64,000 bases of DNA from Iphione sp. A-MEVVRFRX5 (GCA_976226885.1 OZ320315.1:58652001-58716000), one strand, 5' to 3'; numbered from the stretch's first letter, positions 2,803 through 46,342 are shown. Numbers and translations are program-made. Notes: generated from the sequence alone by a model not told the origin.

Positions 2803-4624
2803 TATAAATTCGGTCAACTGCATTCTTTTGTAACAACTTAAATATACAATTAATAAATATGTCTTTTTAATAATATTTTACTCTCCAGCCCCCCCCCCCC
2901 CAAAAAAAAATTAATCAGCTGCTAGAGAATATATCCTTTGCCCGCCTGGCGGATAAGGTTCCCCTCGGAAATTCCACCCTCGTCCCTCTCAAAGCTGCTC
3001 CCGCATGAAGCGGCGGGCGATAGTTTCCGGGTATTCTGTTGAGTAGACTTTCGGAGCAGCCGCCTGCGGGCCCTTCCCGCTCGCTCGTCCACCCACTCAC
3101 TCACCAACTCGATAAAGCTGCTGCCCCCATAATCTATCAGGCGCCCTCCCACCGTGTTCGGTTGGCCCGGGTCTTCCCGAGTGCCGACGTAATGCCTTCC
3201 TGCGGGGCCACAGGTAAAGCCATGAGCTGCTCTAAAGTGACGCGCCGAGGTCATTTCCCAATGATCAAACTCCCTGCTCCTTTGTACTCGGAGATCACGC
3301 AAAGTGAACCGTGCCTGCTCGATCAAAGCGCACCAAGCTTGGCAGAATCTCCCGCCGACAATGCAAGCAGCAGCCCCAATGTCCCTTTCGTCCACTTCTT
3401 GTCACCCGTCCGACTTTACCGTTCGTAATAGATAGGGGAACATGCCGTCTCTACCACTTCAAAGGAATGCTTTTTAAAGTGCTCTGCTGTTCTGAGCGAA
3501 ACGTCCAGATTTGTAGACCATCCATGGTTAAAGGTAGATATCGGTGCTATCTCTATTTCCTTTTTTAGGCGGATGTCTTCATTGTGGTTCAACCCTCTTG
3601 CCAGCATTATATGTTTGTGTGCATGCTTGTGTGTGCCTGTGTTTGTGTGGTAAGGACGGTAACACTAAATCTCTTCACTTAAGAATGTTGATCATCAGAG
3701 CATCCTTACGCCCATCTCTCTCACCTCTCTCCAGCCCTCATCTTCTACTCTTCTTTATTTCCTCAAATATTCTTCGCATCTTGCATACCCTCTTTCCCAC
3801 ACTTTTCTCAGTAGTACTAGATCTCTTTGCGGTTCTCCCTACCGAGCCTCTCTTCTTCAGGACGTGGGAGCCATCAGAAAGGTGTTTGTCCTCAGGACGT
3901 CTGTGAAAATGTTGAAGGCGTTGGACGAACCGTTACACAAAACTGTGCCAGGGGCGCATCGGACACGGGGTCTGGTAGACCTTTGCTTATGAACCAGATA
4001 GGTAGTTTAGAAAGATGTGAGGGGTGTGGCGTTTGCCACATCGACAACGCCAACACTTTGGCACGGCTGCATGTCGGGCAACGCTCGGCACCAGTCAGCG
4101 GCACCAGGGCGCCCCATTACTGCCTCCTTCTGTAAGTCAAGTCTCGCCGGGCGTGAGGAGCACAACTCTTCCTTTGGCGTGGTACAGGAGCCGGCAAGTC
4201 ATCCCCCAGGCACTGAGTTAACGGCTCCTGTCTGGCCCAAGGAGAGGTCCCATGAGTAAATGAAATACATCCGCATCGGGAGGCTGTCTGCCATCTGGCA
4301 TGAACAAGTTATTTGCTTCACGAGCTATAACTATTAATCTCATAGCATATTCATGCTTAACAAATTGCCGCACTAACCAAGCAGAAATCATAGTCATACA
4401 TGTATCTTTGTAACGACAAATACTAAATCCAAGGCAAAGAAAAGCTTTGGATTTAAGAAAGTGCCGATTTAACGGCGTAAACTTTGCATGCATTGTATAC
4501 TTGGACTAGTGTGGGCTTTAGACGATTCACTTTAAAAAAAAAATCTCTTATCAGCTGCACGCAAACCATACTACTATTCGGGGGATGGTTTTATTGATCG
4601 TAGCATTAAAAATGATGGCCCTGC

Positions 4625-4638
4625 ACTTAACAAAACTG
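4625..4638 (+). repeat. Left copy of putative 14-bp TSD ACTTAACAAAACTG
   Basis: Identical to 6354-6367; the flanking bases differ on both sides. Confidence 0.7.
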
Positions 4639-4664
4639 CCCCAACCGACCAAACACACAACGTC

Positions 4665-5216
4665 ATGGCAACCCATCTACTAAAATGTGACTTCTGCAAA
4701 GCCTGGCTTAAGAACGAACGAGCACTTCTTAGACATCTCAATAAATATCATCGTGATGCCAAACAGGGTGACATCAAACGGGGTAAGTACCCGTGTTTCA
4801 TATGCCCATCCACATTCACCCGCCCAAGTACGTTGAAAAGACACTCAATTAAACAACACAATTACCTGCATCCATTACCCAAACCCGTCCTAGGCTACGT
4901 GAGACAACCCATCTACAAAAAACCTCTATGGAGAAACAATACAATCACTCCAGAAAATGTGAAATTTAAAACATTGACATTTGTATCACCTTACAGACGA
5001 CGTCGGGCTCGCAAAGATGATACACTCACCGAGAAAACCAACGATACGCACGATTCCGAAGAACAAGCCACGAAAATCGCCCACACCACCCCCTGTGTCC
5101 ACGACCAAAAGGAAGAAGTCACCAGAACCAGACCAGTTAATGAGCATCACACAAAAGATCAAGAAACAAGAATCCACGTCCAGACAGATTATACAACTGA
5201 GTCCTCAGATGTCTGA
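4665..5216 (+). CDS. C2H2 zinc-finger protein, N-terminal part (183 aa as read)
   Basis: ATG in GTCATGG context. Two C-x2-C-x12-H-x4-H motifs: CDFCKAWLKNERALLRHLNKYH (4686-4751) and CFICPSTFTRPSTLKRHSIKQH (4794-4859). Confidence 0.75.
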   Translation: MATHLLKCDFCKAWLKNERALLRHLNKYHRDAKQGDIKRGKYPCFICPSTFTRPSTLKRHSIKQHNYLHPLPKPVLGYVRQPIYKKPLWRNNTITPENVKFKTLTFVSPYRRRRARKDDTLTEKTNDTHDSEEQATKIAHTTPCVHDQKEEVTRTRPVNEHHTKDQETRIHVQTDYTTESSDV

Positions 5217-5868
5217 TCCAACCGTAAGGAAATCTGGACGCCACCTACACCCATCTGCTACACACCCTAGAAACAAACCGAATTCATCAACATCAACCAA
5301 ACCCCAGCCAGGGGGGGTGAACAAACCGACAAGCCAAGATGGTTCAACCCAACCGACGAAGGACAAGACACTAAGCCCAGTACATCTACCGCCAGTACTG
5401 ACTATAAACCTCGAAGAAGATTTAGAGGTAAGCGACAGTGACGAGAGCAGCACACCGGATGATAGCGACGACTCCAGCAACACGTCTAACTCAGACTCTG
5501 AGGAAGACCCATCCGACGTAGTGACGACCACCCAAACGAATGAAGGGATGGCTGACCCGACTGCTATGGACACCAACAACAGCAACACAACAACGGAAGA
5601 AGACCCCCTGGATACAGATGACGGCAACAAGTCCTACCCTGTAGAAGAATACGTCCCACGCCCAACAGAAGCCAGCAGGACCACCACTGCCACATACAGA
5701 CCCAGTGCCAGACACCTGTCTAATTTTACCACACGTGCCACACATGTACCAGCATCTGAAATTATGTATGATTTGTGGAGAATCGTAGGGAAAATAAACC
5801 AAACGGTTGGTGATGATTTGGCCCGGATACTTGTAAGGGAGGGCCTCATAAGACCATTGAGGCAGTAA
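4981..5868 (+). CDS. Ser/Thr/Pro/acidic low-complexity ORF with a short helical-looking C-terminus; probably the +1-frameshifted continuation of the zinc-finger ORF
   Basis: 295 open codons in AT-rich DNA, overlapping 4665-5216 in the +1 frame. It contains an S/D/E tract (VSDSDESSTPDDSDDSSNTSNSDSEED) and ends IMYDLWRIVGKINQTVGDDLARILVREGLIRPLRQ. It also has its own ATG at 5017. Confidence 0.6.
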   Translation: MYHLTDDVGLAKMIHSPRKPTIRTIPKNKPRKSPTPPPVSTTKRKKSPEPDQLMSITQKIKKQESTSRQIIQLSPQMSDPTVRKSGRHLHPSATHPRNKPNSSTSTKPQPGGVNKPTSQDGSTQPTKDKTLSPVHLPPVLTINLEEDLEVSDSDESSTPDDSDDSSNTSNSDSEEDPSDVVTTTQTNEGMADPTAMDTNNSNTTTEEDPLDTDDGNKSYPVEEYVPRPTEASRTTTATYRPSARHLSNFTTRATHVPASEIMYDLWRIVGKINQTVGDDLARILVREGLIRPLRQ

Positions 5869-6240
5869 CAGGCCATTAATTGATTAAAAATGGATTATGC
5901 TCTGAAGTACATCAGAGCTTGATAAGACATTAATTGGTTTATTGCATTTATACGGTTCATCGACTTCCACGTTAGATAATTCACTGATTACACAACGTAA
6001 TAGTTTTTTTAAAAAAAATGTTTAACCGAATTTAAAAGTTGATTACATGTCTTGAGTAAAATGTTAACGTTCAACCAACGGTTGTAACATAAGCACATAT
6101 CACACACCACAGTACAAATGCATCACTCAGTACAACCCACTATTACTTTAGCTGCACTCATTCACACTAAGGGCCTCAACAACCAAGATTACACAAGCTG
6201 CACTTAGAGGCACTTCAATACATAATCCCATCACCTACAC

Positions 6241-11900: not shown

Positions 11901-12438
11901 AGTCGAAACACAAAATTCAGAGAAAACATATCTTAAGATTTAACAACCTAGGAGAAAAAGATACAAAGAATCTATGGAATGTATGTATTGGAAGTTATGA
12001 CACAATGTATCACCTGTAATATCAAACTTGTATTATAATAGATTTGAGCAGAAAATTAATGAATTGGGAAGAAATTATGTATTCTCTTTCAGGGTACCAT
12101 AAGAGAATGACATGGAGTTTTGTCTCGGTCATAGTTACTACTGCAGAAACTTTATCCACCTGTTTCTTTGTATGTTCTTACGATGTGTCTATTATTTATT
12201 CAGGACTATATGGGACAATATTGGAAGTGGGACCTTGCTGCCTTCTACATGAACAAAAATTGTACTTATTTAATGATAAGCCTGATATACATGTAATTAT
12301 GATAAACCCATGTTGTTTTGTGCAAAAATGCATATTGGGCGTAAATCAAATATTAAATAGAAAATAGGCAGAAACATGTGTATAGAATATGACAAACGGA
12401 TTAATAATTAATCATACTTTATCTCATTATGTAATTAT

Positions 12439-12714
12439 TGTAGCGTTTCCCGTTACGTAATAAAGACATGACCAAGTATTGAAACAGTAGGGTTTATTCC
12501 TGAGGAACAGCAGTAATGAACAGCACGGTGACCCAGGTCCAACTGACTGGACCCTCCCTGAGTAGCCCCTTATATACCCACCCCTAGGGGGCAGGGGAGG
12601 TGGGGAGTGCAGCACTCCGCACCCCCCCCCCCCGGTGCGTCCTGGTGCCGCACTCCGCATGCAGCACTCAGCACCGGTGGGGCGCCTCCTGGTGCCGCAC
12701 TCCGCAGCACCACA
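12439..12714 (-). repeat. 3' LTR (276 bp)
   Basis: TGTAGCG...CACCACA. Differs from 21783-22054 by one C/T substitution and a C12 versus C8 run. AATAAA on the minus strand at 12493-12498. Confidence 0.98.
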
Positions 12715-12726
12715 CTGCCCCCTCCC
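12715..12726 (-). other. Polypurine tract
   Basis: The minus strand reads GGGAGGGGGCAG immediately before the 3' LTR. Confidence 0.9.
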
Positions 12727-12828
12727 AAAACGGGACTTTGTCCTCAAAGTTCTCAACTGTAACATAGAACAGTTCTAAAGTGGAAGGCAAGCTAACAGTC
12801 AACACTTGGTGGCTCATCGGTGCCAGTC

Positions 12829-14895
12829 CTAGTGGAGGGACACAGTCCACACTTCTTTGAGATTGGCAACCACGCAGTCGCCATCGCGCGCCTGATCCCA
12901 TGTCGTCAGTCTACGCATCGCAGTGCCTCTGGTAAGATTCTCGTACCTCCGAGCGTGCCACCGCATTAGCTCGGCCGAATCTAACTGATCCGACCCGCTC
13001 CGCCTGAATCGGATGCTCTGGTTCAGCGTGAGCTTGACTTGGCGCCCTCCTAATGCCTGGACCTCGGACCGTCCAGAGGCCCGTACGATTTCCCAGCCTG
13101 TGGGCGGTGTTGACTGGCATGAAACAAAGCGCCCCGCGGCCCACACGTAGACCTCCTCAGGCACTCCCGAGTCCTCCGGCGAAGGGGGGGATATGTCCTG
13201 GTAGGACCAGGCCTGGTAGGGGGAGCGCGCGCCTGGCGGTATCCATGGTTGGCCGCCCCCCCGACCCAGGCCTGGCGACGTAACAGGGTGCACGCGTGCA
13301 GTGGGGGAGGCCATCCCCCGTGCCAAATTCGGAAGCGACGCCCGTCTCCGGAGGTGGTGACCTGGAGTCACCCAGCGCTGAGCCGTGTCTTCCGAGGAAC
13401 CGGGACGCAGGGGCCGGTCGAGCAAGGCCTCTACATCCCCGCGGCGGCCTGGGGGTGCAGCTAAGGGCCATCGCAATGGCCCTGCCCCTGGCATGGTTGG
13501 TACTGCTGGTGCCGCCCCCAGTCCTTCCCCGCCACCTCGGGGCGGCGCAAGGGGGGTCTGGACTCCGGTAGGGGCTCCTGGTACTGCCCCCTCCGTGTCC
13601 GCTCCGCCCCTAGGGTCGGGTGGCACGACTTCCTCCGGCCCTACTCCGGCCGGCGTATCCTGAGGCGGTTCCGTTGGTGTGACGACTTCTTCACGCCCCG
13701 TCCCCGGCGTGGTTGGTTGTGCAGGCGGAGTCGTCGCTCTTTGCGTGTCGGACCGGGGAGACACCTGGGGGTCGGGGGTCCCGGTGGGCGCTCCTGGCAC
13801 TGCCTCCCCTGGGCCCGCTCCCCCAGGGCGAACCGTCGGCGACGGTTCTCTCATCCCCCTTCCGGTGGTCCCGGGAGTGGATGGCCCCGCCGGGCCTGCA
13901 GCCACCTCATCGTCATCTGTGGCCGGCTCTCCGGTCGGCGGTGCCTCCCCCGGCGGTGGTGAGCCTGCGGATGAAGGCCGGTCCGGGGAAGCCATCACAT
14001 TCCCCCCTGGGGGTGCCGCTGACAACCCTCCGGTTTCCGAATCGGTATCGCCAGAGGCCTCCAGGGGCTCGTCATCTTCCGCGATTGGGTCCAGTTCACG
14101 AGACGGCTCCTCGGGCACGGTCAGGGTGGGAGTCGCCCCCCCCTGATCCGATGGCACCACGGGTGGGGGGTGGATCAGCGGTCCCAGCCCTCGAGGTTCC
14201 GCTGTTCCCTCTTGACCGGATGCACTGTGCTGAGACAGTCCTGCCAATGTGGCCGCCGCCTCTTCTTCCAAACTGGGGAGCTCGTCCGAGCTTATGTCAT
14301 CCACCCAGAAGGAGGTCCCTAGGGTTTCAGCGAAGACCCTCCTGAGGGGGCTAACCTGGGTGGAGCTCCCTTCTTTAGTGGCTGACCCCGGGGTCGAAGA
14401 AGTGGGTGTGTCGACATTCCTACCGGGTGTGGCTTCCCCCCCTTTGGGGCGGGGCTCGCCCCCGGGTCGTTTCCGCGGCGGCGGGGGAGACTCCCCTGAT
14501 GAGTCGGTGATGACCACCGCCTGGGAGGAAGACGTTTCTTTGGACCAACCAGGTCCCAGGCGGCGGTCCAACTCCTCTTCTGACTCGGTGGCCGAACCCC
14601 GGCCCATCTTGGCTGGTGGTCGCCCGGGTCGCGTTGCTTTGGCCGGAATGGCCTTCCCCTTCCCCTTTCCGGGTGGTCCAGCAGCAGCCTTCCCTTTTCC
14701 TCTCTCGGCTCCGTCTCGACCTTGGTGGCGCACCGCCGCACATCCCCTACCAGGTGAGTACGGGGCATCTGGGGGTTGGGCCGACGGTCCGGGGGAAGTC
14801 TGCGTGGGGGTTCGTCCTGTCCGTTGGCCCGACGGTCCTTCGGCCGACGGTCCTGCGCTTCCGCCCGCTCCGTCGGAGTCCGACTCCGAGTTCAC
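12829..14895 (-). CDS. Long Pro/Gly/Ser/acidic low-complexity ORF with an apparently globular C-terminus, in frame with pol after a single UGA
   Basis: 688 open codons ending about 100 nt before the PPT. It is in the same frame as pol (TGA 14907-14905, then CGG CTA TTC GTG). There is no ATG near its 5' end, and no signal peptide or TM segment was seen. The last about 110 aa (VYVWAAGRFV...EVWTVSLH) are compositionally complex. Confidence 0.7.
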   Translation of the reverse strand: MNSESDSDGAGGSAGPSAEGPSGQRTGRTPTQTSPGPSAQPPDAPYSPGRGCAAVRHQGRDGAERGKGKAAAGPPGKGKGKAIPAKATRPGRPPAKMGRGSATESEEELDRRLGPGWSKETSSSQAVVITDSSGESPPPPRKRPGGEPRPKGGEATPGRNVDTPTSSTPGSATKEGSSTQVSPLRRVFAETLGTSFWVDDISSDELPSLEEEAAATLAGLSQHSASGQEGTAEPRGLGPLIHPPPVVPSDQGGATPTLTVPEEPSRELDPIAEDDEPLEASGDTDSETGGLSAAPPGGNVMASPDRPSSAGSPPPGEAPPTGEPATDDDEVAAGPAGPSTPGTTGRGMREPSPTVRPGGAGPGEAVPGAPTGTPDPQVSPRSDTQRATTPPAQPTTPGTGREEVVTPTEPPQDTPAGVGPEEVVPPDPRGGADTEGAVPGAPTGVQTPLAPPRGGGEGLGAAPAVPTMPGAGPLRWPLAAPPGRRGDVEALLDRPLRPGSSEDTAQRWVTPGHHLRRRASLPNLARGMASPTARVHPVTSPGLGRGGGQPWIPPGARSPYQAWSYQDISPPSPEDSGVPEEVYVWAAGRFVSCQSTPPTGWEIVRASGRSEVQALGGRQVKLTLNQSIRFRRSGSDQLDSAELMRWHARRYENLTRGTAMRRLTTWDQARDGDCVVANLKEVWTVSLH

Positions 14896-14904
14896 GAATA
14901 GCCG

Positions 14905-15729
14905 TCAGCCCTTGTACTCCTGAGGGGCCGGCAAGTTGATGCCTTTCGGGGTCGGAATCAAGGGGAGGGTCCGGGCGCACGTAGTTGATCCCGTCGACCG
15001 CGCTTTCGGGGCCCTGGCGTACGTACGCGGCCTCATCCTGTCTGGGGAGGATGCGGACCCCCCACTGGTCCCTGCTGGGTTGCTCGAAGAGGGCCCGGCC
15101 TCGGAGGCCGAACTGCGGGGCGGCTGGGAAGGCCTCTCCGTCTCCGATGGGGACTCTGCTGACCCCGCCGAGGTGGACGTGGGGGGGCCCTTACTGCCAG
15201 CGGAGCCGCCGGGGGTCGCTGGGGCGGTACGGTCTGTACCCAGTCGACGGCGCGCCCGGCGGGCTGGTCGTCGTGGCGGTCGGGCAGGAACCTCCTCTCC
15301 GGGTTCCGCCTCGTCATCCGAAGAGTCCACCACTTCGGCGCGGAGATCCTTCGTACGGGCTGTAGCCTCTCGCTGGCGCCGCCGGGCTAGGTCAGCCTGC
15401 AGGTCCGCGGGACAGTCCATCGCGACCCCGCGGGTAGGATTGAACCCCGAGAAACGAATGAATTGCACGTCGACCGTCTGGGTCATCTGGAGTGACCCAT
15501 GCACTCCCAGGAGGTGCCTCTTCCAGTCCGTCCGGCGCCGGAAAGCAGTACATTTGCACTCCAGCACCGGGCAAATCCAGCCAAACCCCTTGGGGCAATG
15601 AACTTGCTCCATGTGGCGGCGCAGGTTTTGCCGCTGCTGGAAACCTGTATCACACAGGTGGCACGAGAACGGGGCTGGTGGTGGGGGGGTCGCTCCTGGC
15701 GCGGGTCGGGGTCGTCCTCCTTCTGCCAT
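14905..15729 (-). CDS. Putative separately expressed accessory protein (274 aa; 966 aa with UGA readthrough) with two C2H2 zinc fingers
   Basis: ATG in GTAATGG context at 15729, 11 nt after a strong splice acceptor. CHLCDTGFQQRQNLRRHMEQVH (15663-15598) and CPVLECKCTAFRRRTDWKRHLLGVH (15573-15499). Basic patch PARRARRR. It is in frame with and inside the pol ORF. Confidence 0.65.
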   Translation of the reverse strand: MAEGGRPRPAPGATPPPPAPFSCHLCDTGFQQRQNLRRHMEQVHCPKGFGWICPVLECKCTAFRRRTDWKRHLLGVHGSLQMTQTVDVQFIRFSGFNPTRGVAMDCPADLQADLARRRQREATARTKDLRAEVVDSSDDEAEPGEEVPARPPRRPARRARRRLGTDRTAPATPGGSAGSKGPPTSTSAGSAESPSETERPSQPPRSSASEAGPSSSNPAGTSGGSASSPDRMRPRTYARAPKARSTGSTTCARTLPLIPTPKGINLPAPQEYKG

Positions 15730-18700
15730 TACGCCTGGGCCTAGGAGAGAAAAGGACGAGTTAGACACAACCTCCGATACGCTTGTCATGCGGGTCGCAT
15801 TCCGTTTCAAAGTCCGCAGCGGCCCCACGCCCCCCGCCGCAGTGGCGTGAGGCGGTTGTCCACCCTGCGGCGTACTCAAACTCCGCTGCGGCCTTTCGTG
15901 CGGCCCACTCGACCTATTACCGCTATGCACACAGTGCGGCGTAGTCGTACTCTGCTGCGGCCTTCCATGCGGCCCGCTCGACCTATTACCGTTATTCACG
16001 CAGTGCGGCGTAATCGAACTCTGCTGCGGTCTATAAGGTTTGTTATGTTTACACACCCTCCGCGGCGGCCTAATGCTCACTGATACATCCTGCGGCTTTT
16101 GCTGAATAATTCGTACAACGTGGGTGCCGCTCCTGAACTGTCGCGGACCAACAAGATAAGATGCGGCCCTTTCCTCCCGATTATCGCTCAGCTGCGGAGA
16201 CAAACAGTTCAAATGGACCTGGCTTACCTCGTCTGTGGCAGTTTCGGGCTGAACAGGAGATTCCAAGGTGGTGTTCTCGACGTTAGGGCACAGAGGCAGA
16301 TGGGAGATCGAGTTGACAACGATCTTTTGTGGCGAAAACGGCTCGTGGGGAGATCGGGGGTGCTCGCTTCGGTTGCTAGAGACGCTGCGGGGAACGCGCG
16401 TTGTCGACGTGGCGCCCTCTATGGGAACCGGACGGCTAAACTCCGCAGCGGCCTGTCCGGACTCCGCCCCGCGCTCTGGCGTGGTGCCCCCTGGCGTTTC
16501 ATCTTGCGCTCTGTGCTCGGGCTCTGCAGCAACTCTTGGGCCACCGGGTGACTCCGCAGCGGCCTTCCGGGGGTGTCCTGCCGCTGCGACGGTGACGTCC
16601 CCCAACGCGGGTTTCAATCGATCAGCGTGCACCACTTTCCTGCGCGCACCTCTCCCGATGCGATAGACCACTGCTGACAGCCGATCCTCCACACGCCATG
16701 GCCCTTCCCACCAGCTCTGGAATTTGGGGGACACTCCTTTCTTCCTCAGGGGAGTGAAGAGCCACACACTCTGCCCTACCACGTACTCCTGGGGCCTCAC
16801 TTTTTGGTTGTACCAGTCTTGTCGCAATTCGGCCGCTCGATTCAGCTTGCAAGCCACGCGCTGGTGAGCCTCCCGAACTTCCTCCTCCACCTGGCACGCG
16901 TAGTCTCCTCTCTCTACTGCCGGTTTTTCCGGGTGCCCGTAACGTAATTCCGCTGGCGTGGCCACTTCACGGTACAGGGTCAGCCAATTGGGGGACATGC
17001 CAGTGGTACTGTGGGGGGTGGCCCTGTATGCGGCCATCACGAAGGGCAGCGCTAAGTCCCAATCCGCTTGCCTCTCTTCCCCTAGTGTGGCCAACATGTT
17101 GGCAAGTGTCCTGTTAAAGCGTTCCACCACCCCGTCTGCTTGGGGGTGGTACGGTGTGGTCCTTGATTTTTCAATCCCCAATAACCGCAGCACCTCCCTG
17201 AAGAGCTCGGCCTCGAAGTTCCGCCCTTGGTCGGAATGCAAGGCCCGAGGAGGTCCAAACCGACACACAATTTCCTTGACAATTACCTCAGCAGTCGCTT
17301 GGGCAGTGACTTCAACCAAGGGGAAGGCTTCTGTCCATTTGGAAAAATGGTCCGCCACCACCAGTATGTAGCGGTGTCCCCGCTCAGTCCGCGGAAGCGG
17401 TCCTAGGACATCCGCTGCCACTAGCTCCCACGGTTCGCTCACTTTCCGGTACTGTAGTGGGGCTCGCTTGTTGCGGGGCGGTCCTTTCCGGCGTTGGCAT
17501 GCCTGACACGCTTGTGTCCAGCGCAGAACATCGCGCCGAAGTCCAGGCCAAAACCACTTGGTCTTCAGTGCAGCCCCCGTCTTCTCTGCCCCGAGGTGGC
17601 CACCCAGTGCCCCTTCGTGGGCTTCCAGCCATATCTGCTTCCGCAGGCTCCTTGGGACGTAGGCCTGGTACACCGGTCGCGACGGCTCCTCCTCCCAGCA
17701 CCGCATGAGTACCCCACGTCTGAGGCTCAGCCGCCTGGCTTCGGCACGTAGTTGGCGCTCCTCCCATGACAACCCGGGCTCCAACCCTGGGGGTTCTCTT
17801 CCCTCTTCAAGGGCATCCATGATAGCCGCCACCGACTCTTCCTCCCGCTGGGCTTCGCGCAACTGCGGCTGGTCCTCCGCCGGCGCGAGTGTCACCATGG
17901 CTGCCCACTCCTGCGCTGGCTCCTCTTCTCCCTCCACCCGATGGCACTGCTTACAGCGCTGGCGGGAGAGCCCATCAGCGTTGCCGTGCTTCTTTCCGGG
18001 CCGATGGACGATCAGCAGGTCATGGCAGAAGATTTCTTCTAGCCACCGGGCCAACTGTCCCTGAGGCTCCCGGAAATTGCACAGCCATCGCAGGGAGTCG
18101 TGGTCGGTCCGTATCTCGACCGTACGCCCTCCCACATAGCAACGGAACTTCCGTAACGCGAAGACTACGGCTAATAATTCCCGCCGGGTGATGCAGTAGT
18201 TCCTTTCTGGTCGCGTGAGTGTCCTACTGGCATACACCAAGACCCTTTCCTGCCCCTCCTGTTCCTGAGAGAGCACTGCACCCACGCCCGTGTCGGAAGC
18301 GTCAGTATCCAGTAAGAGGCGTCCCTGCGGCTTTGGGAACCCCAGGATGGGTGCCGACATGAGCCGCCTCTTGAGCTCCTCGAACGCCAACTGACATTGG
18401 TCCGACCACGCGAACTCAGCGTGCCGGTCGGCCAATGCATGCAACGGTGCTGCAATCCTGGCAAATCCTTCTACAAAATTCCGATAGTAGGAGCAGAGGC
18501 CCAAAAACCCTCGCAGTTCCTCCTGGCAGCGAGGCAACGGCCACTCGGCTACTGCCGCCACTTTGGCCGGGTCCACCCCTACTCCTGCTGCGGACACCCT
18601 GTGCCCCAGGTAGGCCACCTCTCGTCGGAACAGTTGACACTTTGAGGCTTTTACGTGTAGTCCTGCCTGCTGCAACCGTTGCAGCACCGATCTTAAGCGC

Positions 18701-20073
18701 TGGCACATTTGCCGCACCGAGTCCCCAAGAACGATGACATCATCCAGATAGACGAGGCACTCCACCCCGATGAGCCCTCGCAGTACTGATTCCATCAGTC
18801 TCTCGAAAGTGGAAGGAGCGTTGCAGAGCCCGAAGGGCATAACCTTGAACTGGTATAGCCCCCTGGGCGTGCACACCGCGGTCTTCTCTGCATCCTGGGG
18901 GTCCATGCGGACCTGCCAGTATCCACTGGCCAGGTCGAGGGCCGAGAAGAACCGACTCCCCTGGAGGGCGTCCAAGGTGTCGTCAATTCGGGGGATGGGA
19001 TAGGCGTCCTTTTTGGTGACCAAGTTCAGCCGTCGGTAATCCACACAGAACCGGGTACCACCGTCCTTCTTTTTCACCAGTACTAAGGGGGAGGCCCATG
19101 GGCTGGTGGAGGGTTCGAGGACTCCCCGCTCCACCATGGAGTCTACTTCCCGCTCCAGCTCCGCCCTCTTCTGCGGAGGAAGGCGTCGCACCCGTTGACG
19201 GATGGGGGGGTGCCCTTGCGTGTCGATTTGGTGCTGCACATCAGGGGTACATCCGAGCGGCCCGCTGGGGGTCTGGAACACCCCCTTGTACTCTTCCAGC
19301 AAGGTGTGTACCATTCGCCGTTCCTCAGCCGACAGGTCGTCCGGAAGGCTTTCCAGCAGCAGCCCCACTGCCTCGGCCTGTTCCTCCTCGATCACTGAAC
19401 TGGCTCCGACCTGGGCGGGGTTCACGTCCTCTACCGGGTGAGCCCACCCCACGTGGGTTCCCCCATGGATGTATGCCTCCTGCGACCCCGGGTTCCACAC
19501 CGGTACCAGCAGCTTCCGTTCGGCTGGGCGCACCACCGCATGCGCCACCCGAAGCCCCGACCGTTCCTCGAACCGCTGGTTGCCCTCGGTCAGAACTCCT
19601 TCTGGCTCCCCCAGCGTTGGTGCCCAAGTGGCTGTCACCCATCCTAGCTGCCCTGCGGCGATGCGATGGTCCCCTCGGGCTGCCAACAGCACCGCTCCGT
19701 CCCCCACGGGCGCGCCCAAGGTCACTTGTGCTCGTAGAGTGTCGACCGTTGCCTCCCACGCGTCCAACCAGTCAAGCCCCAGGATGGCCGGTACTTCCAT
19801 GTCGACTACCCTTGCCCTCACGGGCACCCGGGTGTCACCGAATTGGACTTGACTGGCCACCGTTCCCCTTACTACCAGGGGAGCCCCGTCTACGCCGAAC
19901 ACCCTGGCGTCGACAGGCCCCAGGGTAATGCCTCGCAGGTTGTCAAAGACCCGGCTTGATAGTAGAGAAGCAGATGCCCCGGTATCCACCAGCCAATCGA
20001 AGGTGCAGCCCCCCATCCTTCCGGACAGGAGAAGTCCGCTGCACCCTTGTCGTCGGTGCCCTTGCAGGACCAA
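14905..20073 (-). CDS. pol: Pol polyprotein (protease, RT, RNase H, integrase) with a C-terminal extension of about 560 aa; the frame is open back to the frameshift site at about 20200
   Basis: LVDTGA (DTG at 19986-19978), YLDD (18750-18739), TDAS (18306-18295), HHCC zinc motif (HEGALGGH...CQAC), and DDE triad DVLGP (about 17410), SDQG (about 17230), VERFN (about 17120). GPY/F-like WEGPW...VVHADRLKP ends at about 16610. No internal stops. Confidence 0.97.
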   Translation of the reverse strand: MVLQGHRRQGCSGLLLSGRMGGCTFDWLVDTGASASLLSSRVFDNLRGITLGPVDARVFGVDGAPLVVRGTVASQVQFGDTRVPVRARVVDMEVPAILGLDWLDAWEATVDTLRAQVTLGAPVGDGAVLLAARGDHRIAAGQLGWVTATWAPTLGEPEGVLTEGNQRFEERSGLRVAHAVVRPAERKLLVPVWNPGSQEAYIHGGTHVGWAHPVEDVNPAQVGASSVIEEEQAEAVGLLLESLPDDLSAEERRMVHTLLEEYKGVFQTPSGPLGCTPDVQHQIDTQGHPPIRQRVRRLPPQKRAELEREVDSMVERGVLEPSTSPWASPLVLVKKKDGGTRFCVDYRRLNLVTKKDAYPIPRIDDTLDALQGSRFFSALDLASGYWQVRMDPQDAEKTAVCTPRGLYQFKVMPFGLCNAPSTFERLMESVLRGLIGVECLVYLDDVIVLGDSVRQMCQRLRSVLQRLQQAGLHVKASKCQLFRREVAYLGHRVSAAGVGVDPAKVAAVAEWPLPRCQEELRGFLGLCSYYRNFVEGFARIAAPLHALADRHAEFAWSDQCQLAFEELKRRLMSAPILGFPKPQGRLLLDTDASDTGVGAVLSQEQEGQERVLVYASRTLTRPERNYCITRRELLAVVFALRKFRCYVGGRTVEIRTDHDSLRWLCNFREPQGQLARWLEEIFCHDLLIVHRPGKKHGNADGLSRQRCKQCHRVEGEEEPAQEWAAMVTLAPAEDQPQLREAQREEESVAAIMDALEEGREPPGLEPGLSWEERQLRAEARRLSLRRGVLMRCWEEEPSRPVYQAYVPRSLRKQIWLEAHEGALGGHLGAEKTGAALKTKWFWPGLRRDVLRWTQACQACQRRKGPPRNKRAPLQYRKVSEPWELVAADVLGPLPRTERGHRYILVVADHFSKWTEAFPLVEVTAQATAEVIVKEIVCRFGPPRALHSDQGRNFEAELFREVLRLLGIEKSRTTPYHPQADGVVERFNRTLANMLATLGEERQADWDLALPFVMAAYRATPHSTTGMSPNWLTLYREVATPAELRYGHPEKPAVERGDYACQVEEEVREAHQRVACKLNRAAELRQDWYNQKVRPQEYVVGQSVWLFTPLRKKGVSPKFQSWWEGPWRVEDRLSAVVYRIGRGARRKVVHADRLKPALGDVTVAAAGHPRKAAAESPGGPRVAAEPEHRAQDETPGGTTPERGAESGQAAAEFSRPVPIEGATSTTRVPRSVSSNRSEHPRSPHEPFSPQKIVVNSISHLPLCPNVENTTLESPVQPETATDEVSQVHLNCLSPQLSDNREERAASYLVGPRQFRSGTHVVRIIQQKPQDVSVSIRPPRRVCKHNKPYRPQQSSITPHCVNNGNRSSGPHGRPQQSTTTPHCVHSGNRSSGPHERPQRSLSTPQGGQPPHATAAGGVGPLRTLKRNATRMTSVSEVVSNSSFSLLGPGVMAEGGRPRPAPGATPPPPAPFSCHLCDTGFQQRQNLRRHMEQVHCPKGFGWICPVLECKCTAFRRRTDWKRHLLGVHGSLQMTQTVDVQFIRFSGFNPTRGVAMDCPADLQADLARRRQREATARTKDLRAEVVDSSDDEAEPGEEVPARPPRRPARRARRRLGTDRTAPATPGGSAGSKGPPTSTSAGSAESPSETERPSQPPRSSASEAGPSSSNPAGTSGGSASSPDRMRPRTYARAPKARSTGSTTCARTLPLIPTPKGINLPAPQEYKG
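15741..15764 (-). promoter_or_regulatory. Putative branch point, polypyrimidine tract and 3' splice acceptor
   Basis: The minus strand reads CTAAC-TCGTCCTTTTCTCTCC-TAG|GCCCAGGCGTA-ATG. The branch A (15761) is 20 nt from the acceptor (15741), in otherwise GC-rich coding DNA. Confidence 0.65.
15870..16029 (-). repeat. 69-bp (23-aa) tandem repeat, about 2.3 copies, in the post-integrase linker
   Basis: RPQQSSITPHCVNNGNRSSGPHG / RPQQSTTTPHCVHSGNRSSGPHE / RPQRS. Confidence 0.85.
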
Positions 20074-20161
20074 TCCCCCGGTGGTGGCTCCCGCCAGGGC
20101 TCTGAGATGTTCGGGCAGAGGCGAACCGTCGTGGCCCGGGTCTGCCGCAACTGGTGACTCT

Positions 20162-20205
20162 ACCGCCCGCCCCTCTAGGCTCGGGCGGGCGGTCCCCCGT
20201 TTCCC
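20162..20205 (-). promoter_or_regulatory. -1 programmed ribosomal frameshift signal (gag to pol)
   Basis: Slippery G GGA AAC in the gag frame (20205-20199), a 5-nt spacer, then a perfect 11-bp stem ACCGCCCGCCC/GGGCGGGCGGT with a 10-nt loop containing the gag TAG. The -1 frame reads openly into LVLQGHRRQG...DTG. Confidence 0.9.
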
Positions 20206-21020
20206 GGCTCCGGGGCGGGGGCAGCGGTAGGGGCAGAACCAGAGGCTGTGGCATTAGCCTCTGCTGCTTGGCGGGCTGGGCACTCCCGCTTGAAGTGTCC
20301 GGGTTCGTGGCAGTAGAAACAGGCCCCCTCTGGAGCCCGACGGCGGCCCCGGCGGCTGGGAGTGGCCGGAGGCTGTTCCACCAACTTGAGCAGCAACTGC
20401 TCCACGCGCTCCCACGCCGGCGGGGCTGAGGCTGGCGCAGAGCGATTCGCGGCTACCGATTCTCCCTCCTCGGTGCGCGCGGCATGGACACGAGTGGTTG
20501 AGCCCGTCCCGGAGCGTTCCTTCTTGGCACGGTGGAAGGATTCGGCCAGTAACGCTTCGGACACCACCGACTGGAACGAGCGGGCCTTCGCTTGGACCAC
20601 CCAGCGACGGCTCCGCTCCTCCCTTAGTGCCGACACGAAGGCGTCCCGGCACATGCGGTCCAGCCAGGGTCCTTCTGCTTCCGGGTACGCCTGTCGCACC
20701 AAACGCTCAATGTCCTCCGCGAGCTTCTGGGCGTCCTCGTCCTTTCCCTGCCGCCTCTGCTTGAGTTCCTGCTCGTAGAAGGTGGCGCGGTCGGCCGACT
20801 GGAAACGATTCTTTAAGGCGTCCACGATCCGATCATACGCGCCTTCGGCTGCCACATCGATCCCAGCGGTACGAAGCGCCGACTGCGCCGACCTGCGCAA
20901 GCAGACGCTCAGTTGCAGGGCCTGCTCGGTCCGGTCCCAGCGGTTGGCCCGGGCTACCAGTCCGAAATGGTGTAGGTACTCGGCGAGGGGTACCGACCCA
21001 TCAAAGGTTTCGGGCTTCAC
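20175..21020 (-). CDS. gag: Gag core (capsid-like region and CCHC nucleocapsid knuckle)
   Basis: KPETFDG...EYLHHFGLVARANRW retrotransposon gag-like start and CFYCHEPGHFKREC (20321-20280). This frame has a stop at 21095-21093 and no ATG of its own. Confidence 0.92.
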   Translation of the reverse strand: MKPETFDGSVPLAEYLHHFGLVARANRWDRTEQALQLSVCLRRSAQSALRTAGIDVAAEGAYDRIVDALKNRFQSADRATFYEQELKQRRQGKDEDAQKLAEDIERLVRQAYPEAEGPWLDRMCRDAFVSALREERSRRWVVQAKARSFQSVVSEALLAESFHRAKKERSGTGSTTRVHAARTEEGESVAANRSAPASAPPAWERVEQLLLKLVEQPPATPSRRGRRRAPEGACFYCHEPGHFKRECPARQAAEANATASGSAPTAAPAPEPGNGGPPARA

Positions 21021-21657
21021 ATGGAAACGCCGTGCAGGGGTCGTAGCCGCGGGGGGTTGCCATCGACTGCAGGGCCTCCTGGAGGCCTGAAACTAAGCCC
21101 CGCACCAACTGTCCCCGGTCGTCCTCCCCCTCGGTCCTCGCAGAACTCGGCAAGGTCGTCACGGACCTAGGGCTGCTGTTAGCACTACCATCCGGTTCTG
21201 AACCGGCACCAGGCTCAGCCCGACGCGGTGGTGTAGCGGGTGGCTGGACAGTATCCCGAGCGCCCCTGGGTTGTCTGGCCGACGGTTGTGCTGCCTGCGG
21301 CTGTGTGGCCCCTGGGCCTTGGGGCGCGGCAGGCGGCTGCGCGGCGTTCTCCAGCTGCACGCCCTGCGGCTGGGCGTCTGGTGGCGGCACCCCCCTTGGT
21401 GAAGCGCCCCTGGGTTGTTCGGCCGGCGGTGGTGCTGCTTGCGGCTGGGCCGCCTGCGGTGGGGCCGTCCCTCGGCCCTGTGGTACGGCGTGCGGCTGCG
21501 CTGCATGCGGCTGTGATGCTGCACGCGGCTGTGGTGCTGCATGCGGCTGTGGTGCTGCATGCGGCTGCGCTGCTGCATGCGGCTGTGGTGCTGCATGCGG
21601 CTGTGGTGCTGCATGCGGCGTGCGGCCCAACTGGACTTCATCATCAGAACTCGACAT
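21001..21657 (-). CDS. gag: Pro/Gln/Ala-rich ORF; probable Gag N-terminus separated from the core by a one-base frameshift
   Basis: MSSSDDEVQLG..., about 7 copies of an 18-bp PQPHAA repeat (about 21490-21625). Removing one C from the C6 run at 21051-21056 gives ...LQSMATPAATTPARRFHVKPETFDG. Confidence 0.7.
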   Translation of the reverse strand: MSSSDDEVQLGRTPHAAPQPHAAPQPHAAAQPHAAPQPHAAPQPRAASQPHAAQPHAVPQGRGTAPPQAAQPQAAPPPAEQPRGASPRGVPPPDAQPQGVQLENAAQPPAAPQGPGATQPQAAQPSARQPRGARDTVQPPATPPRRAEPGAGSEPDGSANSSPRSVTTLPSSARTEGEDDRGQLVRGLVSGLQEALQSMATPRGYDPCTAFPCEARNL

Positions 21658-21763
21658 GCTGTCCCACTGGTCCGACTCCCCGGATACTTCCGGTGCGCCG
21701 GCCGGCCAGCGTCGGCGTCCTCTCCCCAACGACTGTCCCCGGCCATGTCCTGCGGTGGGCGAG

Positions 21764-21781
21764 ATCCCACCGCTGCCACCA
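21764..21781 (-). other. Primer-binding site complementary to the tRNA-Leu 3' end
   Basis: Minus strand TGGTGGCAGCGGTGGGAT, 1 nt after the 5' LTR. Its complement ATCCCACCGCTGCCACCA matches, from memory, the 3' end plus CCA of metazoan tRNA-Leu(AAG/TAG). Confidence 0.88.
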
Positions 21782-21782
21782 A

Positions 21783-22054
21783 TGTAGCGTTTCCCGTTAC
21801 GTAATAAAGACATGACCAAGTATTGAAACAGTAGGGTTTATTCCTGAGGAACAGCAGTAATGAACAGCACGGTGACCCAGGTCCAACTGACTGGATCCTC
21901 CCTGAGTAGCCCCTTATATACCCACCCCTAGGGGGCAGGGGAGGTGGGGAGTGCAGCACTCCGCACCCCCCCCGGTGCGTCCTGGTGCCGCACTCCGCAT
22001 GCAGCACTCAGCACCGGTGGGGCGCCTCCTGGTGCCGCACTCCGCAGCACCACA
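21783..22054 (-). repeat. 5' LTR (272 bp)
   Basis: TG...CA termini. On the minus strand TATATAA (21920-21914) lies upstream of AATAAA (21842-21837). Internal repeats GGTGCCGCACTCCGCA occur twice. Confidence 0.98.
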
Positions 22055-22634
22055 TTATCTTGTAAAAGTAAACAGGTAAAGTACTGGATTAAAGCACAAA
22101 GTGTATATCTGTTCAAGAGAAAAAAATGAAAAAAACTATTAGTACATGTACGATTTTCCTGAAAAAAGCGACGTGACCTGTCCTCAAATTTAAACAGATT
22201 GCTATCAATACATTCTACAGTGATGGTACACATCAAAGATCTCCATCTGTATTGTATGTCAGGGTACCGTCAATACGACTCTCAATTATATAGATGATAT
22301 CAATGCCAACGAACTTAAAAGTGTATGCCATCCTGCATTATTCATAAATACAGTACACATCCTAGCCTAATCCTAAAATGAAAATTGAAAGATACTCAAC
22401 ATGACTAGATCATGGGAGATAAAGCAAATTCAAATTCAGTGAAGAATTCCATTCAGCGGCACTATCCTCTTCGGCCCAAATCAGCTTTCCAATCTTACTT
22501 TAGGCCCCAAATTGATTCATTGTGGAGATGTCAGTAGTTGTTTTTGTAGCCCGATCATTGCTCAAACTGCTGGTAACAACTACTATAAGTCCGAAAAGAA
22601 AATTACAGGACTTTTAACAAGTTATATAAACATA

Positions 22635-31205: not shown

Positions 31206-33202
31206 TAGATATCAAAGCATACCCAAAACCACTGATTTATATTTACTTTTAAGTCTCCTGGACAAAAACATCCTGCTGCACGCTGCATAAACTACAAGAG
31301 TGTGCTTGTGAGTGTGTATACATTGTGGAGAAGTGTAAAGAGGGGGGGCAGGTGATAGTAGCATATCGTACCACTTGTGTAATTAAATAGGTTTGGCCCT
31401 GATGCTACAATTGATCCGTCGCCTATAATCTGAGCGGCAGCACTTTGTCACCATCCTGCCGAGAAGACTACCTCAAGGTCACCTAAGGAGGTCAATTTCT
31501 ACCGGCAGTATTGACTGCATTATGCCAGGTGTGTCCGGGCTTGGCTAGTAAACATGCCGGCACATGGAGAGGAGGTGGGGTAAGTAATCTGTCAGCTAGT
31601 GCACGTCTCTATGCTCGTCACATTACTAACACCTGCCTACTATTGAACAAATAAAAGGATATCTTGATGGAATGACGCTAGTGAAACTTCGCTCGAGAGC
31701 TGGTATGACTTATAGAGAGCCCTTATTAAAAAAACGGGTAATTGTCACGTGCATGCCACTTATAACAGAGAAGAGAAACCTAGCAGTCGGGCGAAACACG
31801 AATTTAGAAGCGAGAGACACGGCTCATAAACAAGACTCATTGCATGTTTTAGACCATGGCATCTACTTGCTTGGTATGCCCGTTTTCATTATATCTGAGA
31901 AATTTTGCGCGTAGGGCACATACTATTATAGTGTTCTATTTGATCTCTCCAGGAGAAAATGGAAAGAGCTACTAATTATCATTAATTACAGGAACCATGA
32001 GTTTTTTCCTTTTAATAAAGCACGCTGCTAACACGCAATCCTAATGGAATCGATTTGGTTGAAAGGAAATATTCGTGATAGGTGACCATGTGGAGAAACC
32101 AGGATCATAACGCAAAAGGAGTAAAAGAGAAATATTAGAGAGCCACTCTGTGTTTAGATGCCTGCTCGGCATGCATATCTATCCACAGGAGTCGCTGATG
32201 AAGCGTTTGAATTTCCCATGGGACTTGGAGGGATATGTTTATTCACCGAATACTCTCATCCATGGTCGCCATCGGCACGCCCGTGACAGTCGTCCCCAGC
32301 TGGCAAACGCCGTACGCATGGCCTATGATCCGCACCATAGAAAAATAATGTGCAGTTTTTCATGAGCTGAAACATGAAAAAAGGCTCCCAGACATATGTC
32401 CGATTAAAACGATACATCCCCGTGAGAAATACTGTTTTTGACAATAAGTTCCTGTTTGTCGTCCGTGCGTTACCGAGCAGGTTCCTACCTGGCTGTCAAG
32501 TTTGGTGACTGAGCGGTATACATGTATATTACGCAACTAATATAGAACATCCACATGTAATATAAGTGAGGGATATATAGCAAGTTAGGTGTTGTACATG
32601 ATAAATACAGTCGAATTTCGCTATGCCACCGTGCCTAAAAATGACCAAAACAGCCAAACTAGTTCAGAACGAACGCCTTTGTTAACCTATGAAGTATAAT
32701 ACTACAATGCGGCCAGACTGTAAAGTGACCAAACCGCCTGCAATCACATGTCTTAGAGTCATATCGATACAATATTAATATCACAAAGTAGGCAGAGTTC
32801 TTGACACATAGTGTGATCGCAGAGGTCCTTGCTCAAATTGTTTGCTCAAAAAGCTTTTGAAAGGATTTCCATTGTCTAAGGTGTGCGGACCTATAAAGGT
32901 GTTCTTTGCCAGTGTTAGGCCAGCTTTCCATGCATGTGGGGATTGTCTCCGGAGTCCGGACTGCGTGGCGTGGAAATTAATGATTCTATGACTCTCTACA
33001 TGACTCTTTCCATGCATGCGGGTGTGTGGTGCATGGTGAGTGGTGCAGAGAAGTGCGTGCCCAAAAAACAAACCTGGGCCATAAAATTCTCTGGATACGC
33101 ACACCCATGCACCAGTAGGATACGGAGATGGAGGTTTTCAGCTGGATACACAATGTGTATCACATGGTAGATGTTGTGAATTATTTCCTAATTTGCATAA
33201 AA

Positions 33203-33375
33203 ACCTCCATGAAAAACCACACAATTTCCACCAATATGCTTCAACTTCCATGAAAAACTGCACATTTTCCACCAATATGCTTCAACCTCCATGAAAAACT
33301 GCATACTTTCCACCAATATGCTTCAACCTCCATGAAAAACCACATAATTTCCACAAATATGCTTTGACCTCCATG
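33203..33375 (+). repeat. Minisatellite, 41-bp unit, about 4 copies
   Basis: CCATGAAAAACYRCAYAHTTTCCACCAATATGCTTCAACCT repeated. Confidence 0.9.
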
Positions 33376-33409
33376 CATACATATATACATACATACATGT
33401 ACAATGTAC

Positions 33410-43300: not shown

Positions 43301-46076
43301 GGTATGGTGGACACTGGCACACTAATGGTCAGGATTTAAACGAATCTAACACTGTCCGATTGCTTCTTTGTTAGCTAAGATCAAGACATCGGTATTGTTC
43401 ATCGTTACTTTTCGATTTCGTGTAATTTCCTGTCAGATTACATGTAATAAAATAGTATAAAACGAAAATATTAGTATCAAGCACGTATGCCACTGGTGGA
43501 CAGCACTGAACTCTGAATTTTGATGGATATGGAAAATGTACTTTCAAAACCTATCCTAAGTAGCAGGAGACATTAAGGAAGCATAAAGCATACCCCTTAG
43601 TCACTACCAGCACAGGCACCTATCCTCGTCTGAAACTTCGGAAAGCCCTAGCCATCAAACGAGATCATATAGAGGAGCACAGAGGGCCCAAGATGAAATC
43701 AATTATTCATCGTTGGTGACAGCCTGGGTCAGCAAGGGGAGCTCGCCGCCCAGACGATGGGCCGACTTATCATTCGCCGCCAGGTCCCGCTGATCGCCTT
43801 GCTGAACGGGACGATCGGACATTGCCGATCCACCTTAATGAAGCCAGGGACTGGCTCTGCTTCAGGCCAGTTCTGCAAGAAGGATTTCTTGAGCGCTGGA
43901 AGAAAAATTGGCAGGAATAATGTCTTCGCTCACACTGAAAATAGTGAAGGATGCGTCGAGGGGAGGAACTTTAAATAATCTCTGTTGAAAGAGTTTTACA
44001 ATGCGTGTTGTTTAGCCCATTGAGGCCTGGACTGTATATGAGATAATGTCAATACAGGGCAAGGGTATCTAACTAAACAGCCTCCTAGAGGGCGAGGATA
44101 TTATATAATGATACTATTCCAATATACATATAACGTACATAAAAGATTATGAATTTCTGTCTTTTTCAGGGGAAATCAGATCATTATCAGTGCTTAAAAT
44201 TCTTCCTTTATGGTAAAAGTTACGAAAACTCCAGAAATCCTAAAAGCATATACCTTGATCCGGTGCCTCAAGGCATCATTCGCCCTTTACATAGGAATGC
44301 TTTCAGGCATCATCAGGTTTTAGCCTGGGAATGCCTTCAGGTATCATCCGCCCTTATAGGGCTAAAGGCCGTATTAATCATTGGACTCCATTATGCTGGA
44401 AATATATTGCATAATAGTAATGATCATGCGTTCATATATTTGATACCAAACAAACATAACATATCTATCTTTAAGACATGTCGAAAATGATAGCCATCTC
44501 ACTTCCTGTGACGCAATGCCCGTATTGGTATTTTCTAGACGGGCAATATAGAGACATTGCACAGAAGCGGGCACACGAGACATTAGAATGAAACAGAGAA
44601 ATATCCCTCATTGCAAGAGACCCATGTAGACTTCTGCTTTTAAATCTATGACTTTGATTCGAAAATGATGTCAAAAGAAGTCGGCATAATATAAATATGA
44701 GCCCCGGCATTCCCTGACTATTAAACCTATAAAAGAGAACAGTGTACATAGAAAGTAAAGAACTTGGCATTTCAGGGCTGCGCTTTTGCTTGCGAACTAT
44801 TTCCTGTAGTGAATATTTGATGATGCCGTGCGATAGCAGTTCAGTAAGCCCTGTTAAAATAGGTTGGACTGTAGGTGGGACAAACTGGGCACGGTTCAAG
44901 CGTGCTTAAGAACATATAGCCTTGCCCTGTTGGGCTGATGCCATCCGCTGCAGGTGTGTCTATGGGTGAAAGGGAGGTAGGCGGTGTCTGTGCAATCCAT
45001 CCAGGTGTGCCGAGAGCGCAACAAACCTGTGGTTCACCTTTCATCAGCCGCCCTTTCATCCGTCACACAAAGACCGAAGCCAAATAAATTCATTGCCATG
45101 TTCCAAATCAAACTTCCAGTCCCCTGTTGCGGGAATAACACCGCTTGGATACTTGTATGTTGTGAACTTGGCGTTCCGTACAAATATTCCACATGTACAG
45201 GTGAGTTAGTCTACCACAGAAGTGTACATGTACACTTATTCGAGCTCAATTGTTTAATCAATTTCATCACAGGTGAGATACTTGGAAACAGTGCACAACG
45301 GACGCATCTGGTGCAGAACATAGCTTCATTTAGTAAAAGTTCACGTATTCCCTTTGTAGGCAAAACACCGCTTCACTCGAGCTGACGTTGTCGGGGCATC
45401 ATTAATAAATGTTAGCCAATTAACGCTGACGTCAGAGATCGGAGTGCATTGTATATCCGCCAGCCAAGTCCAAGGCATGCCCTCCGTCCTCACCATGCCA
45501 TGTAGCCACACATTAGGTTTACACAGTGATGAAAATATTATTTGTACTTTGTTCAAAGAGTTGTCACCCAAAAGCTCTAGTAACTGTTAAAAGTTTTGGC
45601 AGATTCGCATGTGACAGCAGTTGGCTCATTTATACTGAAACATCCTACAGGCTATCCTTATCCGTAGAAAGTTGTCAGAAAAGAAACCATTCCTGGGTGT
45701 TGGCATTATAGATTGGTTCTCTGGCAATCACTGAAGGGATTCATCCACCGATTATAATTATCCATCTCCTCCACTGACCAGGTGCCACAACCGAATGAAC
45801 CGAAACACGATGTCTAATCACTAGTGGCCGATTTCTCATTCAGTGACAGACTGACTGAGGGCGTCTGCAAGGTGCCTATCTTGTGAGATGTGTTGACCAT
45901 TCCACCATCTTATCAGTTGGGGTGAGCCTGCTATCTTGGTGATATAGAGATGGTTTATTCATTGTCATCTAGGGATAGATAAGATCTGGAATCCTGAGAT
46001 AGGGTCAGAGGAGTCTTGGGACTAGTATTGACCACATATTTCCACAAAATTCTGCCATTTATTATCATTTCCCCAT

Positions 46077-46342
46077 CATTTACCAGTGTTTATACTTTTT
46101 CCAGTGAAAATTGCCAGTTTTATACTTTTTGCCAGTCAAATTTACCAGTTTTTATATTTTCTTTAGTGACATTCACCAGTTTTTATACTTTTTCCAGTGA
46201 AATTCAACAGTTTTTATACTTTTTCCAGTGACATTTACCAGTTTTTATACTTTTTCCAGTGGCATTCACCAGTTTTTATACTTTTTCCAGTGACATTCAC
46301 CAGTTTTGATACTTTTCCAGTCCCATTTACCAGCTTTTATAC
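46077..46342 (+). repeat. T-rich minisatellite, 31-bp unit, about 8.5 copies
   Basis: CATTCACCAGTTTTTATACTTTTTCCAGTGA repeated with variants. Confidence 0.92.

Follow-up and report, generated by a model that had tools for sequence, protein, structure and literature searches.

An in-frame UGA-CGG stop in the C2H2-finger ORF3 of a young Ty3/Gypsy retrotransposon from Iphione sp., weighed as a readthrough site and as a lesion

The retrotransposon and its finger-encoding ORF3

A stretch of 64,000 nucleotides from Iphione sp. A-MEVVRFRX5 (GCA_976226885.1, OZ320315.1:58652001-58716000; hereafter the window) contains on its minus strand a Ty3/Gypsy long terminal repeat (LTR) retrotransposon, whose pol frame continues without a change of frame into a third open reading frame (ORF3) that encodes two C2H2 zinc fingers and is interrupted by a single TGA. 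The original prediction saw in this TGA a site of programmed readthrough; we lean towards damage to this copy as the explanation of the TGA at 14907, and consider it likelier than programmed readthrough. Outside the immediate surroundings of the stop, the element consists of the following features:

21783..22054, minus strand: 5' LTR, 272 nt, TG...CA; a 4-bp target-site duplication flanks the element
21764..21781, minus strand: primer-binding site, presumably a match to the 3' end of tRNA-Leu
21001..21813, minus strand: N-terminal low-complexity part of gag, its ATG (21813) lying within the end of the 5' LTR
20175..21092, minus strand: capsid and zinc-knuckle part of gag, in another frame than the gag ATG (zf-CCHC, E = 1.1e-4)
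20162..20205, minus strand: signal for -1 frameshifting between gag and pol, with its slippery heptamer at 20205-20199 and, 5 nt further on, an 11-bp stem
14908..20253, minus strand: pol frame, 1782 codons from stop to stop, with Pfam matches
15741..15756, minus strand: candidate splice acceptor (pyrimidine tract and AG), 11 nt before the ORF3 ATG at 15729
15499..15663, minus strand: pair of C2H2-type zinc fingers opening ORF3 (zf-C2H2, E = 9.1e-5)
12715..12726, minus strand: polypurine tract
12439..12714, minus strand: 3' LTR, 276 nt

The element forms a 9.6-kb GC-rich island between its LTRs, and the LTR ends, the target-site duplication, the order of the pol domains, the primer-binding site and the polypurine tract identify it as a Ty3/Gypsy LTR retrotransposon. 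It is very young, with nearly identical LTRs that differ by a single substitution and by 4 nt in a G run. The flanking sequence and the relatives described below point to an animal host. Pfam matches in the pol frame comprise protease (residues 77-162), reverse transcriptase (RT; 393-553), RNase H (616-740) and integrase (866-1215), which are followed by a linker of 316 residues and then, in the same frame, by the finger ORF3 (Pfam C2H2 finger at residues 1529-1552). The linker between integrase and the finger ATG (about 300 codons; 16612-15730, minus strand) is open although it carries a 69-nt tandem duplication (15861-15998), and its CpG is higher than that of the coding parts.

A signal for the -1 frameshifting that had been proposed for the element is well supported by the sequence of the gag-pol junction, which has the textbook layout of a slippery heptamer and a spaced stem; the predicted pair probability of the stem is 0.94-0.99, and in stability it ranks within the top 0-5% of 147 background windows. 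Upstream of it, gag is broken in this copy or in the assembly: the ATG and the capsid region are in different frames, with the change between 21092 and 21003 (minus strand), and an in-frame Met upstream of the capsid, found in 46 of the 49 fetched loci with a capsid match (see below), is missing from the window. The stretch of the frame change includes a run of six C; together with the 4-nt difference in the G run of the LTRs it hints at homopolymer errors in the assembly or at slippage.

The ORF3 protein is probably also produced on its own, a spliced RNA being translated from the ATG at 15729. This acceptor is the first of two pattern matches in 16700-12829 (the second ends at 14521), and no strong donor was found in 21900-20900, the best site agreeing with 6 of 9 consensus positions; the predicted splicing is plausible from the one strong candidate acceptor, with no convincing donor found. 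A weak donor-like site (21801/21800, minus strand; 5 of 9 consensus positions) lies four codons into gag, counted from its ATG. Splicing from this site to the acceptor at 15741/15740 would bring the gag ATG into frame with ORF3, a phase match that has a 1-in-3 chance.

The stop codon, its context and the RNA downstream

Four features are found at the stop and in the frame behind it:

14902..14907, minus strand: in-frame TGA (14907-14905) with its CGG context
14873..14889, minus strand: 7-bp hairpin with a 3-nt loop, present, not above background
12829..14904, minus strand: 691 open codons after the stop, encoding a Pro/Gly/Ala/Ser-rich region and then a predicted compact domain
12832..13200, minus strand: C-terminal 123 residues, a predicted alpha/beta domain (AlphaFold2 single-sequence model)

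The sequence at the stop is as predicted, GGC TGA CGG CTA TTC (14910-14896, minus strand), and the TGA is the sole stop in the frame that runs from 20253 to the TAG at 12831-12829. It is followed by 691 sense codons (the 688 of the original prediction plus the three quoted there with the stop), of which codon 100, at 14607, is the first in-frame ATG. The predicted protein lengths are likewise correct: from the ATG at 15729 the frame has 274 codons up to the TGA, and 274 + 1 + 691 = 966 if the stop is passed. The 691-codon frame is real coding sequence, since the longest open run among 500 base shuffles was 460 codons (mean 183).

The 123 residues at its end were modelled by AlphaFold2 from one sequence as a compact domain (pLDDT 72.3, pTM 0.70). 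Fold searches with this model gave no match at E <= 0.001 (best Z 4.3, with a root-mean-square deviation of 3.6 over 73 aligned residues) and show neither a known nor a new fold for the predicted domain. A search of the Atlas gave generic C2H2 clusters for the fingers and no match of 0.9 or more for the C-terminal part; five matches to the C-terminal 123 residues were rejected, since each adds up weak similarities within repetitive proteins of bacterial type, and none of 8000 candidates scored in a search with the ORF3 of 966 residues.

UGA-CGG is a type II readthrough motif (PMC3159437). The original prediction had in addition invoked the leaky context UGA-CUA, which does not apply because CUA is the second codon after the stop. 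When every single-base change creating a stop in the frame was counted, a leaky context of type I or II arose at 8 of 830 opportunities across the whole frame and at 3 of 292 from the finger start to the end of ORF3. A random nonsense change would thus fall into such a context in only about 1% of cases, which is the strongest point for readthrough and raises it by a large factor over a low prior. The rarity is tempered by selection, as a first reading of a sequence singles out exactly such cases. The motif occurs also at an ordinary pol end, namely at one of the ten TGA pol stops seen among the 52 loci (of 162 fetched) with enough downstream DNA:

L112, first in-frame stop beyond the integrase match (which ends at 6042): end of pol at a UGA-CGG that is followed by just 19 open codons

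The second support named by the original prediction, a special RNA structure 3' of the stop, does not hold, unlike the rare context. The hairpin TCGGAGT-CGG-ACTCCGA is present (14889-14873, after a 15-nt spacer from the stop), and the structure as a whole does not exceed the average of this GC-rich element or falls below it. A window of 43 nt beginning at the stop has a folding z of -0.24, with 72 of 200 shuffled sequences equally stable; for longer windows z is 0.78 and 0.62, and five separate perfect 7-bp hairpins (seven start positions) occur in the 2.9-kb ORF3 region. The best duplex with an arm after the stop is weaker than those at 92-94% of 842 ORF3 codon positions, and within 250 nt no helix is longer than the 7-bp hairpin, which is equalled or beaten at 64% of 121 background positions. 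When 55 nt are folded the hairpin has a mean pair probability of 0.68; with 95 nt this drops to 0.22 and with 165-350 nt to 0.00-0.02, whereas the value for the frameshift stem of the same element, used as an internal control, stays at 0.94-0.99. Partners up to 2500 nt away gave at best background pairing (8 bp, matched at 89% of 28 positions), no Rfam family matched near the stop, and single-sequence folding found no extended 3' stem-loop of 10-12 bp or more behind a 7-12-nt spacer.

In animal viruses, UGA-CGG depends on such a stem-loop. The stems described have 10-12 or more bp after spacers of 7-12 nt (PMC3159437), and the UGA-CGG sites of Venezuelan equine encephalitis virus (VEEV) and Colorado tick fever virus (CTFV) show less than 1% readthrough without the extended stem-loop (PMC13517186). 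The window shares with VEEV and CTFV the same six letters at the stop and an open frame downstream; they have a conserved and required extended stem-loop about 8-12 nt after the stop, whereas the window has a 7-bp hairpin after 15 nt that is unfavoured in its context. As a type II site it therefore has the context and the open frame but not the structure, and we do not class it as a member.

A programmed stop of the alphavirus type, fixed or segregating in the family, would mostly yield the 274-aa two-finger protein, with a few per cent of the product extended by 691 residues; readthrough would then set the ratio of a short to a long ORF3 protein, the long form adding the Pro/Gly-rich arm and the predicted C-terminal domain. 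We regard this as unlikely, though it is the most serious alternative. It is consistent with the type II motif (the ~1% coincidence above), with the intact downstream frame that ends in a predicted compact domain, with the absence of an ATG for 99 codons after the TGA and with the near identity of the LTRs; some alphaviruses are, moreover, in flux between having and lacking the stop (PMC3159437), so that stop-free relatives are not decisive. Against it stand the missing extended stem, the lack of an Rfam match, three relatives without the stop (see below) and the damage to gag.

An in-frame stop is not foreign to LTR retrotransposons as such: SIRE1-type Sireviruses are retrotransposons that have one. 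Tca2 of Candida albicans carries a UGA between gag and pol, the flanks of which alone gave no readthrough in a yeast reporter, and RIRE2 of rice is a candidate for such a stop at the gag-pol junction (PMC2754532). In both, as in the window, the stop lies inside the coding frame of an LTR retrotransposon. The Tca2 stop parts gag from pol, whereas in the window gag and pol are linked through -1 frameshifting signals in the sequence, with the stop placed inside ORF3, 252 residues beyond its first finger; that the retrotransposon stops described in these sources are at the gag-pol junction, not inside an ORF3, is a further point against readthrough here.

That the UGA encodes selenocysteine or is read under an altered genetic code of the host is very improbable. 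In favour of it is that the UGA stands alone in an otherwise open frame; no selenocysteine insertion sequence (SECIS) match was found at E <= 1 in 12400-22100 (there were three chance-level matches to other families), and the stop lies in low-complexity sequence and not at a Cys position of a finger. The pol frame, moreover, has many TGG codons for Trp and no other TGA over 1782 codons, which also speaks against it.

Relatives of the element and finger ORF3s of other families

Relatives of pol were taken from the best 120 of 5238 matches, the top ones having about 56-60% identity. Among them, P0085 (2317 aa), P0048 (2315 aa) and P0160 (2636 aa; cluster of P0063), Gypsy elements from ENA assemblies, show the same arrangement of pol, linker, two fingers and a long low-complexity tail, with no stop. 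In a rapidly built tree of RT-RNase H, which holds 118 rows out of 124 (six were dropped for short matches) and no named reference elements, these three, four others and the window belong to a clade of nine rows (SH-aLRT 98). Clade relatives also have open linkers (269-508 aa), and from the finger to the end the three measure 737, 883 and 930 aa, compared to 944 aa in the window with the stop passed and 252 aa up to the stop. Thirteen finger columns, among them Cys and His ligands, are invariant between the window and the three relatives. They differ from the window in the absence of a stop after the fingers, in pol (49-51% identity) and in their tails and C-termini, which are not significantly similar to those of the window: an apparent beta-hairpin motif common to the C-termini was rejected (92, 493 and 440 of 500 shuffles score as high), and a profile of the three relatives did not place the window frame among its top matches in 15,006 ORFs. 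A search with a finger profile gave ten matches, one of which (P0178) is a clade relative.

In the cluster of P0048, 8 of the 11 members are open from the finger to the end, five of these over all 2315 aa (the members may be different loci or one locus in different samples). In the cluster of P0063, 3 of the 9 members end early, at three different places with unrelated residues, and sporadic breaks are therefore common in such families. A second copy of the element's own family was not encountered: the exact pattern around the stop gave no stretch in metagenome and viral contigs, and single-protein scans of the viral contigs gave no match.

More distant Gypsy families were represented by 162 fetched loci, none of which belongs closely to the window's clade. 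The 80 metagenome loci contained no finger ORF3 by profile and one C2H2 motif ending a gag-pol frame. The other 82 loci came from collections of viruses and genomes and are for the most part contigs with retrotransposons that had been placed in bacterial bins. Eleven of them, Gypsy elements in probable host DNA within such bins, have a finger ORF just after pol, with Pfam support for the three tested:

L085, L086, L087, L089, L092, L093, L094, L095, L096, L121, L125: separate C2H2-finger ORF directly after pol

Five of the finger-ORF loci have both LTRs, which are 99.5-100% alike, with the ORF shortly before the 3' LTR. Seven complete finger ORF3s were seen as DNA (four from one family); all seven have 2-44 open codons after the stop, with no long frame following. 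Short finger ORF3s in these more distant families measure 155-426 aa. A C2H2-finger ORF3 after pol thus recurs in several unrelated Gypsy families, in frame with pol in the window's clade and separate in the others.

These short ORFs bear on a further explanation, namely that the TGA is the true, family-wide end of a short finger protein, and that the 691 codons are either an ORF of their own, to which a second acceptor or reinitiation would give access, or a recently abandoned tail. The acceptor-like site ending at 14521 lies inside the downstream frame, short finger ORF3s occur in the more distant families, and ORF3s of LTR elements typically come from spliced messages (PMC5408684). In the clade relatives, on the other hand, finger and tail form one frame, and the short ORF3s elsewhere adjoin the 3' LTR with no further long frame. 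A strong donor is missing, as noted above, and the presence of both parts in one frame would be a 1-in-3 coincidence. We consider this explanation quite improbable, more so than readthrough.

In the bdelloid Ty3/Gypsy families with an ORF3, the types described are env-like, GDSL, DEDDy, coiled-coil and transmembrane (PMC5408684). The window resembles these families in its LTRs, primer-binding site, polypurine tract, gag, the order of protease, RT, RNase H and integrase, and an extra ORF before the 3' LTR, here preceded by a candidate acceptor; it differs in that this ORF shares the frame of pol and codes for a pair of C2H2 fingers followed by a long arm of low complexity. The word "zinc" is absent from the main text of that paper, and searching the text of PMC8220671 and PMC13524379 gave no mention of finger ORFs or readthrough. 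No description of a C2H2-finger ORF3 after pol was found in the literature published under open licences.

Other features of the window include a second gene with two C2H2 fingers and a low-complexity tail (4536-5868, plus strand; zf-C2H2_4, E = 4.2e-7), which is split over two frames overlapping at 4978-5216; its surroundings neither match pol nor resemble the fetched loci. Tandem repeats are found inside gag (18-nt period, 21290-21643) and at 33161-33406 (41 nt) and 46047-46347 (31 nt).

A probable lesion of this copy, and the possible meaning of the finger ORF3

Damage to this copy remains the explanation that we favour; the likelihoods given here for all readings are judgements and not computed posteriors. 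In this clade the Ty3/Gypsy pol continues in frame into a long ORF3, in which two C2H2 fingers are followed by an arm of low complexity and then by a C-terminal region, and the ORF3 of the family would most likely be uninterrupted down to 12829. The TGA would be a lesion of this copy or of its immediate parent, placed by chance before CGG, which may have arisen by germ-line mutation, by an error of reverse transcription or as a base error of the assembly. Ribosomes would end at it nearly always, so that a truncated finger protein of 274 aa would be made, with at most basal leakage. We infer that other copies of the family lack this stop.

A lesion is somewhat more likely because the clade relatives keep the frame from pol through the fingers open to its end and because gag has a second break; the likelihood of readthrough is lowered by the same two observations and by the missing structure. 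Lesions are also expected often: from the single substitution between the LTRs, the 7416-nt frame should have acquired about 0.5 nonsense changes since insertion (range 0.01-2.8).

Several observations weigh against the favoured explanation. A random nonsense change would rarely have created the leaky context, and the TGA leaves every pol enzyme and the two fingers intact, as would be expected of a programmed stop (292 of 829 nonsense opportunities in the frame lie from the finger start onward). The age estimate derives from a single LTR substitution. P0048, P0085 and P0160 are distant in pol, their tails do not align with that of the window, so that the position of the stop codon is not comparable, and they were noticed for their length, which biases towards stop-free forms; the nearest rows in the tree (P0021, P0024, P0137) end just past integrase. 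The structure folds were made from one sequence, with no known readthrough site as a positive control.

The alternative picture, doubtful in our view, would be an element that uses a -1 frameshift for pol, a spliced ORF3 and a leaky UGA tuning the short against the long finger protein, other members of the clade making the long form only. Were readthrough true, its site would lie within a retrotransposon's accessory ORF, seemingly with no extended stem of the type on which UGA-CGG depends elsewhere, and would offer a direct test of whether context alone suffices in some hosts. With a lesion, nothing out of the ordinary would have been seen: a single retrotransposon copy would have suffered a nonsense change. 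What appears to be new is not readthrough but the layout, with a C2H2-finger ORF3 after pol, and the finger ORF3s suggest that these elements may encode a nucleic-acid-binding regulator of their own or a factor that counters silencing.

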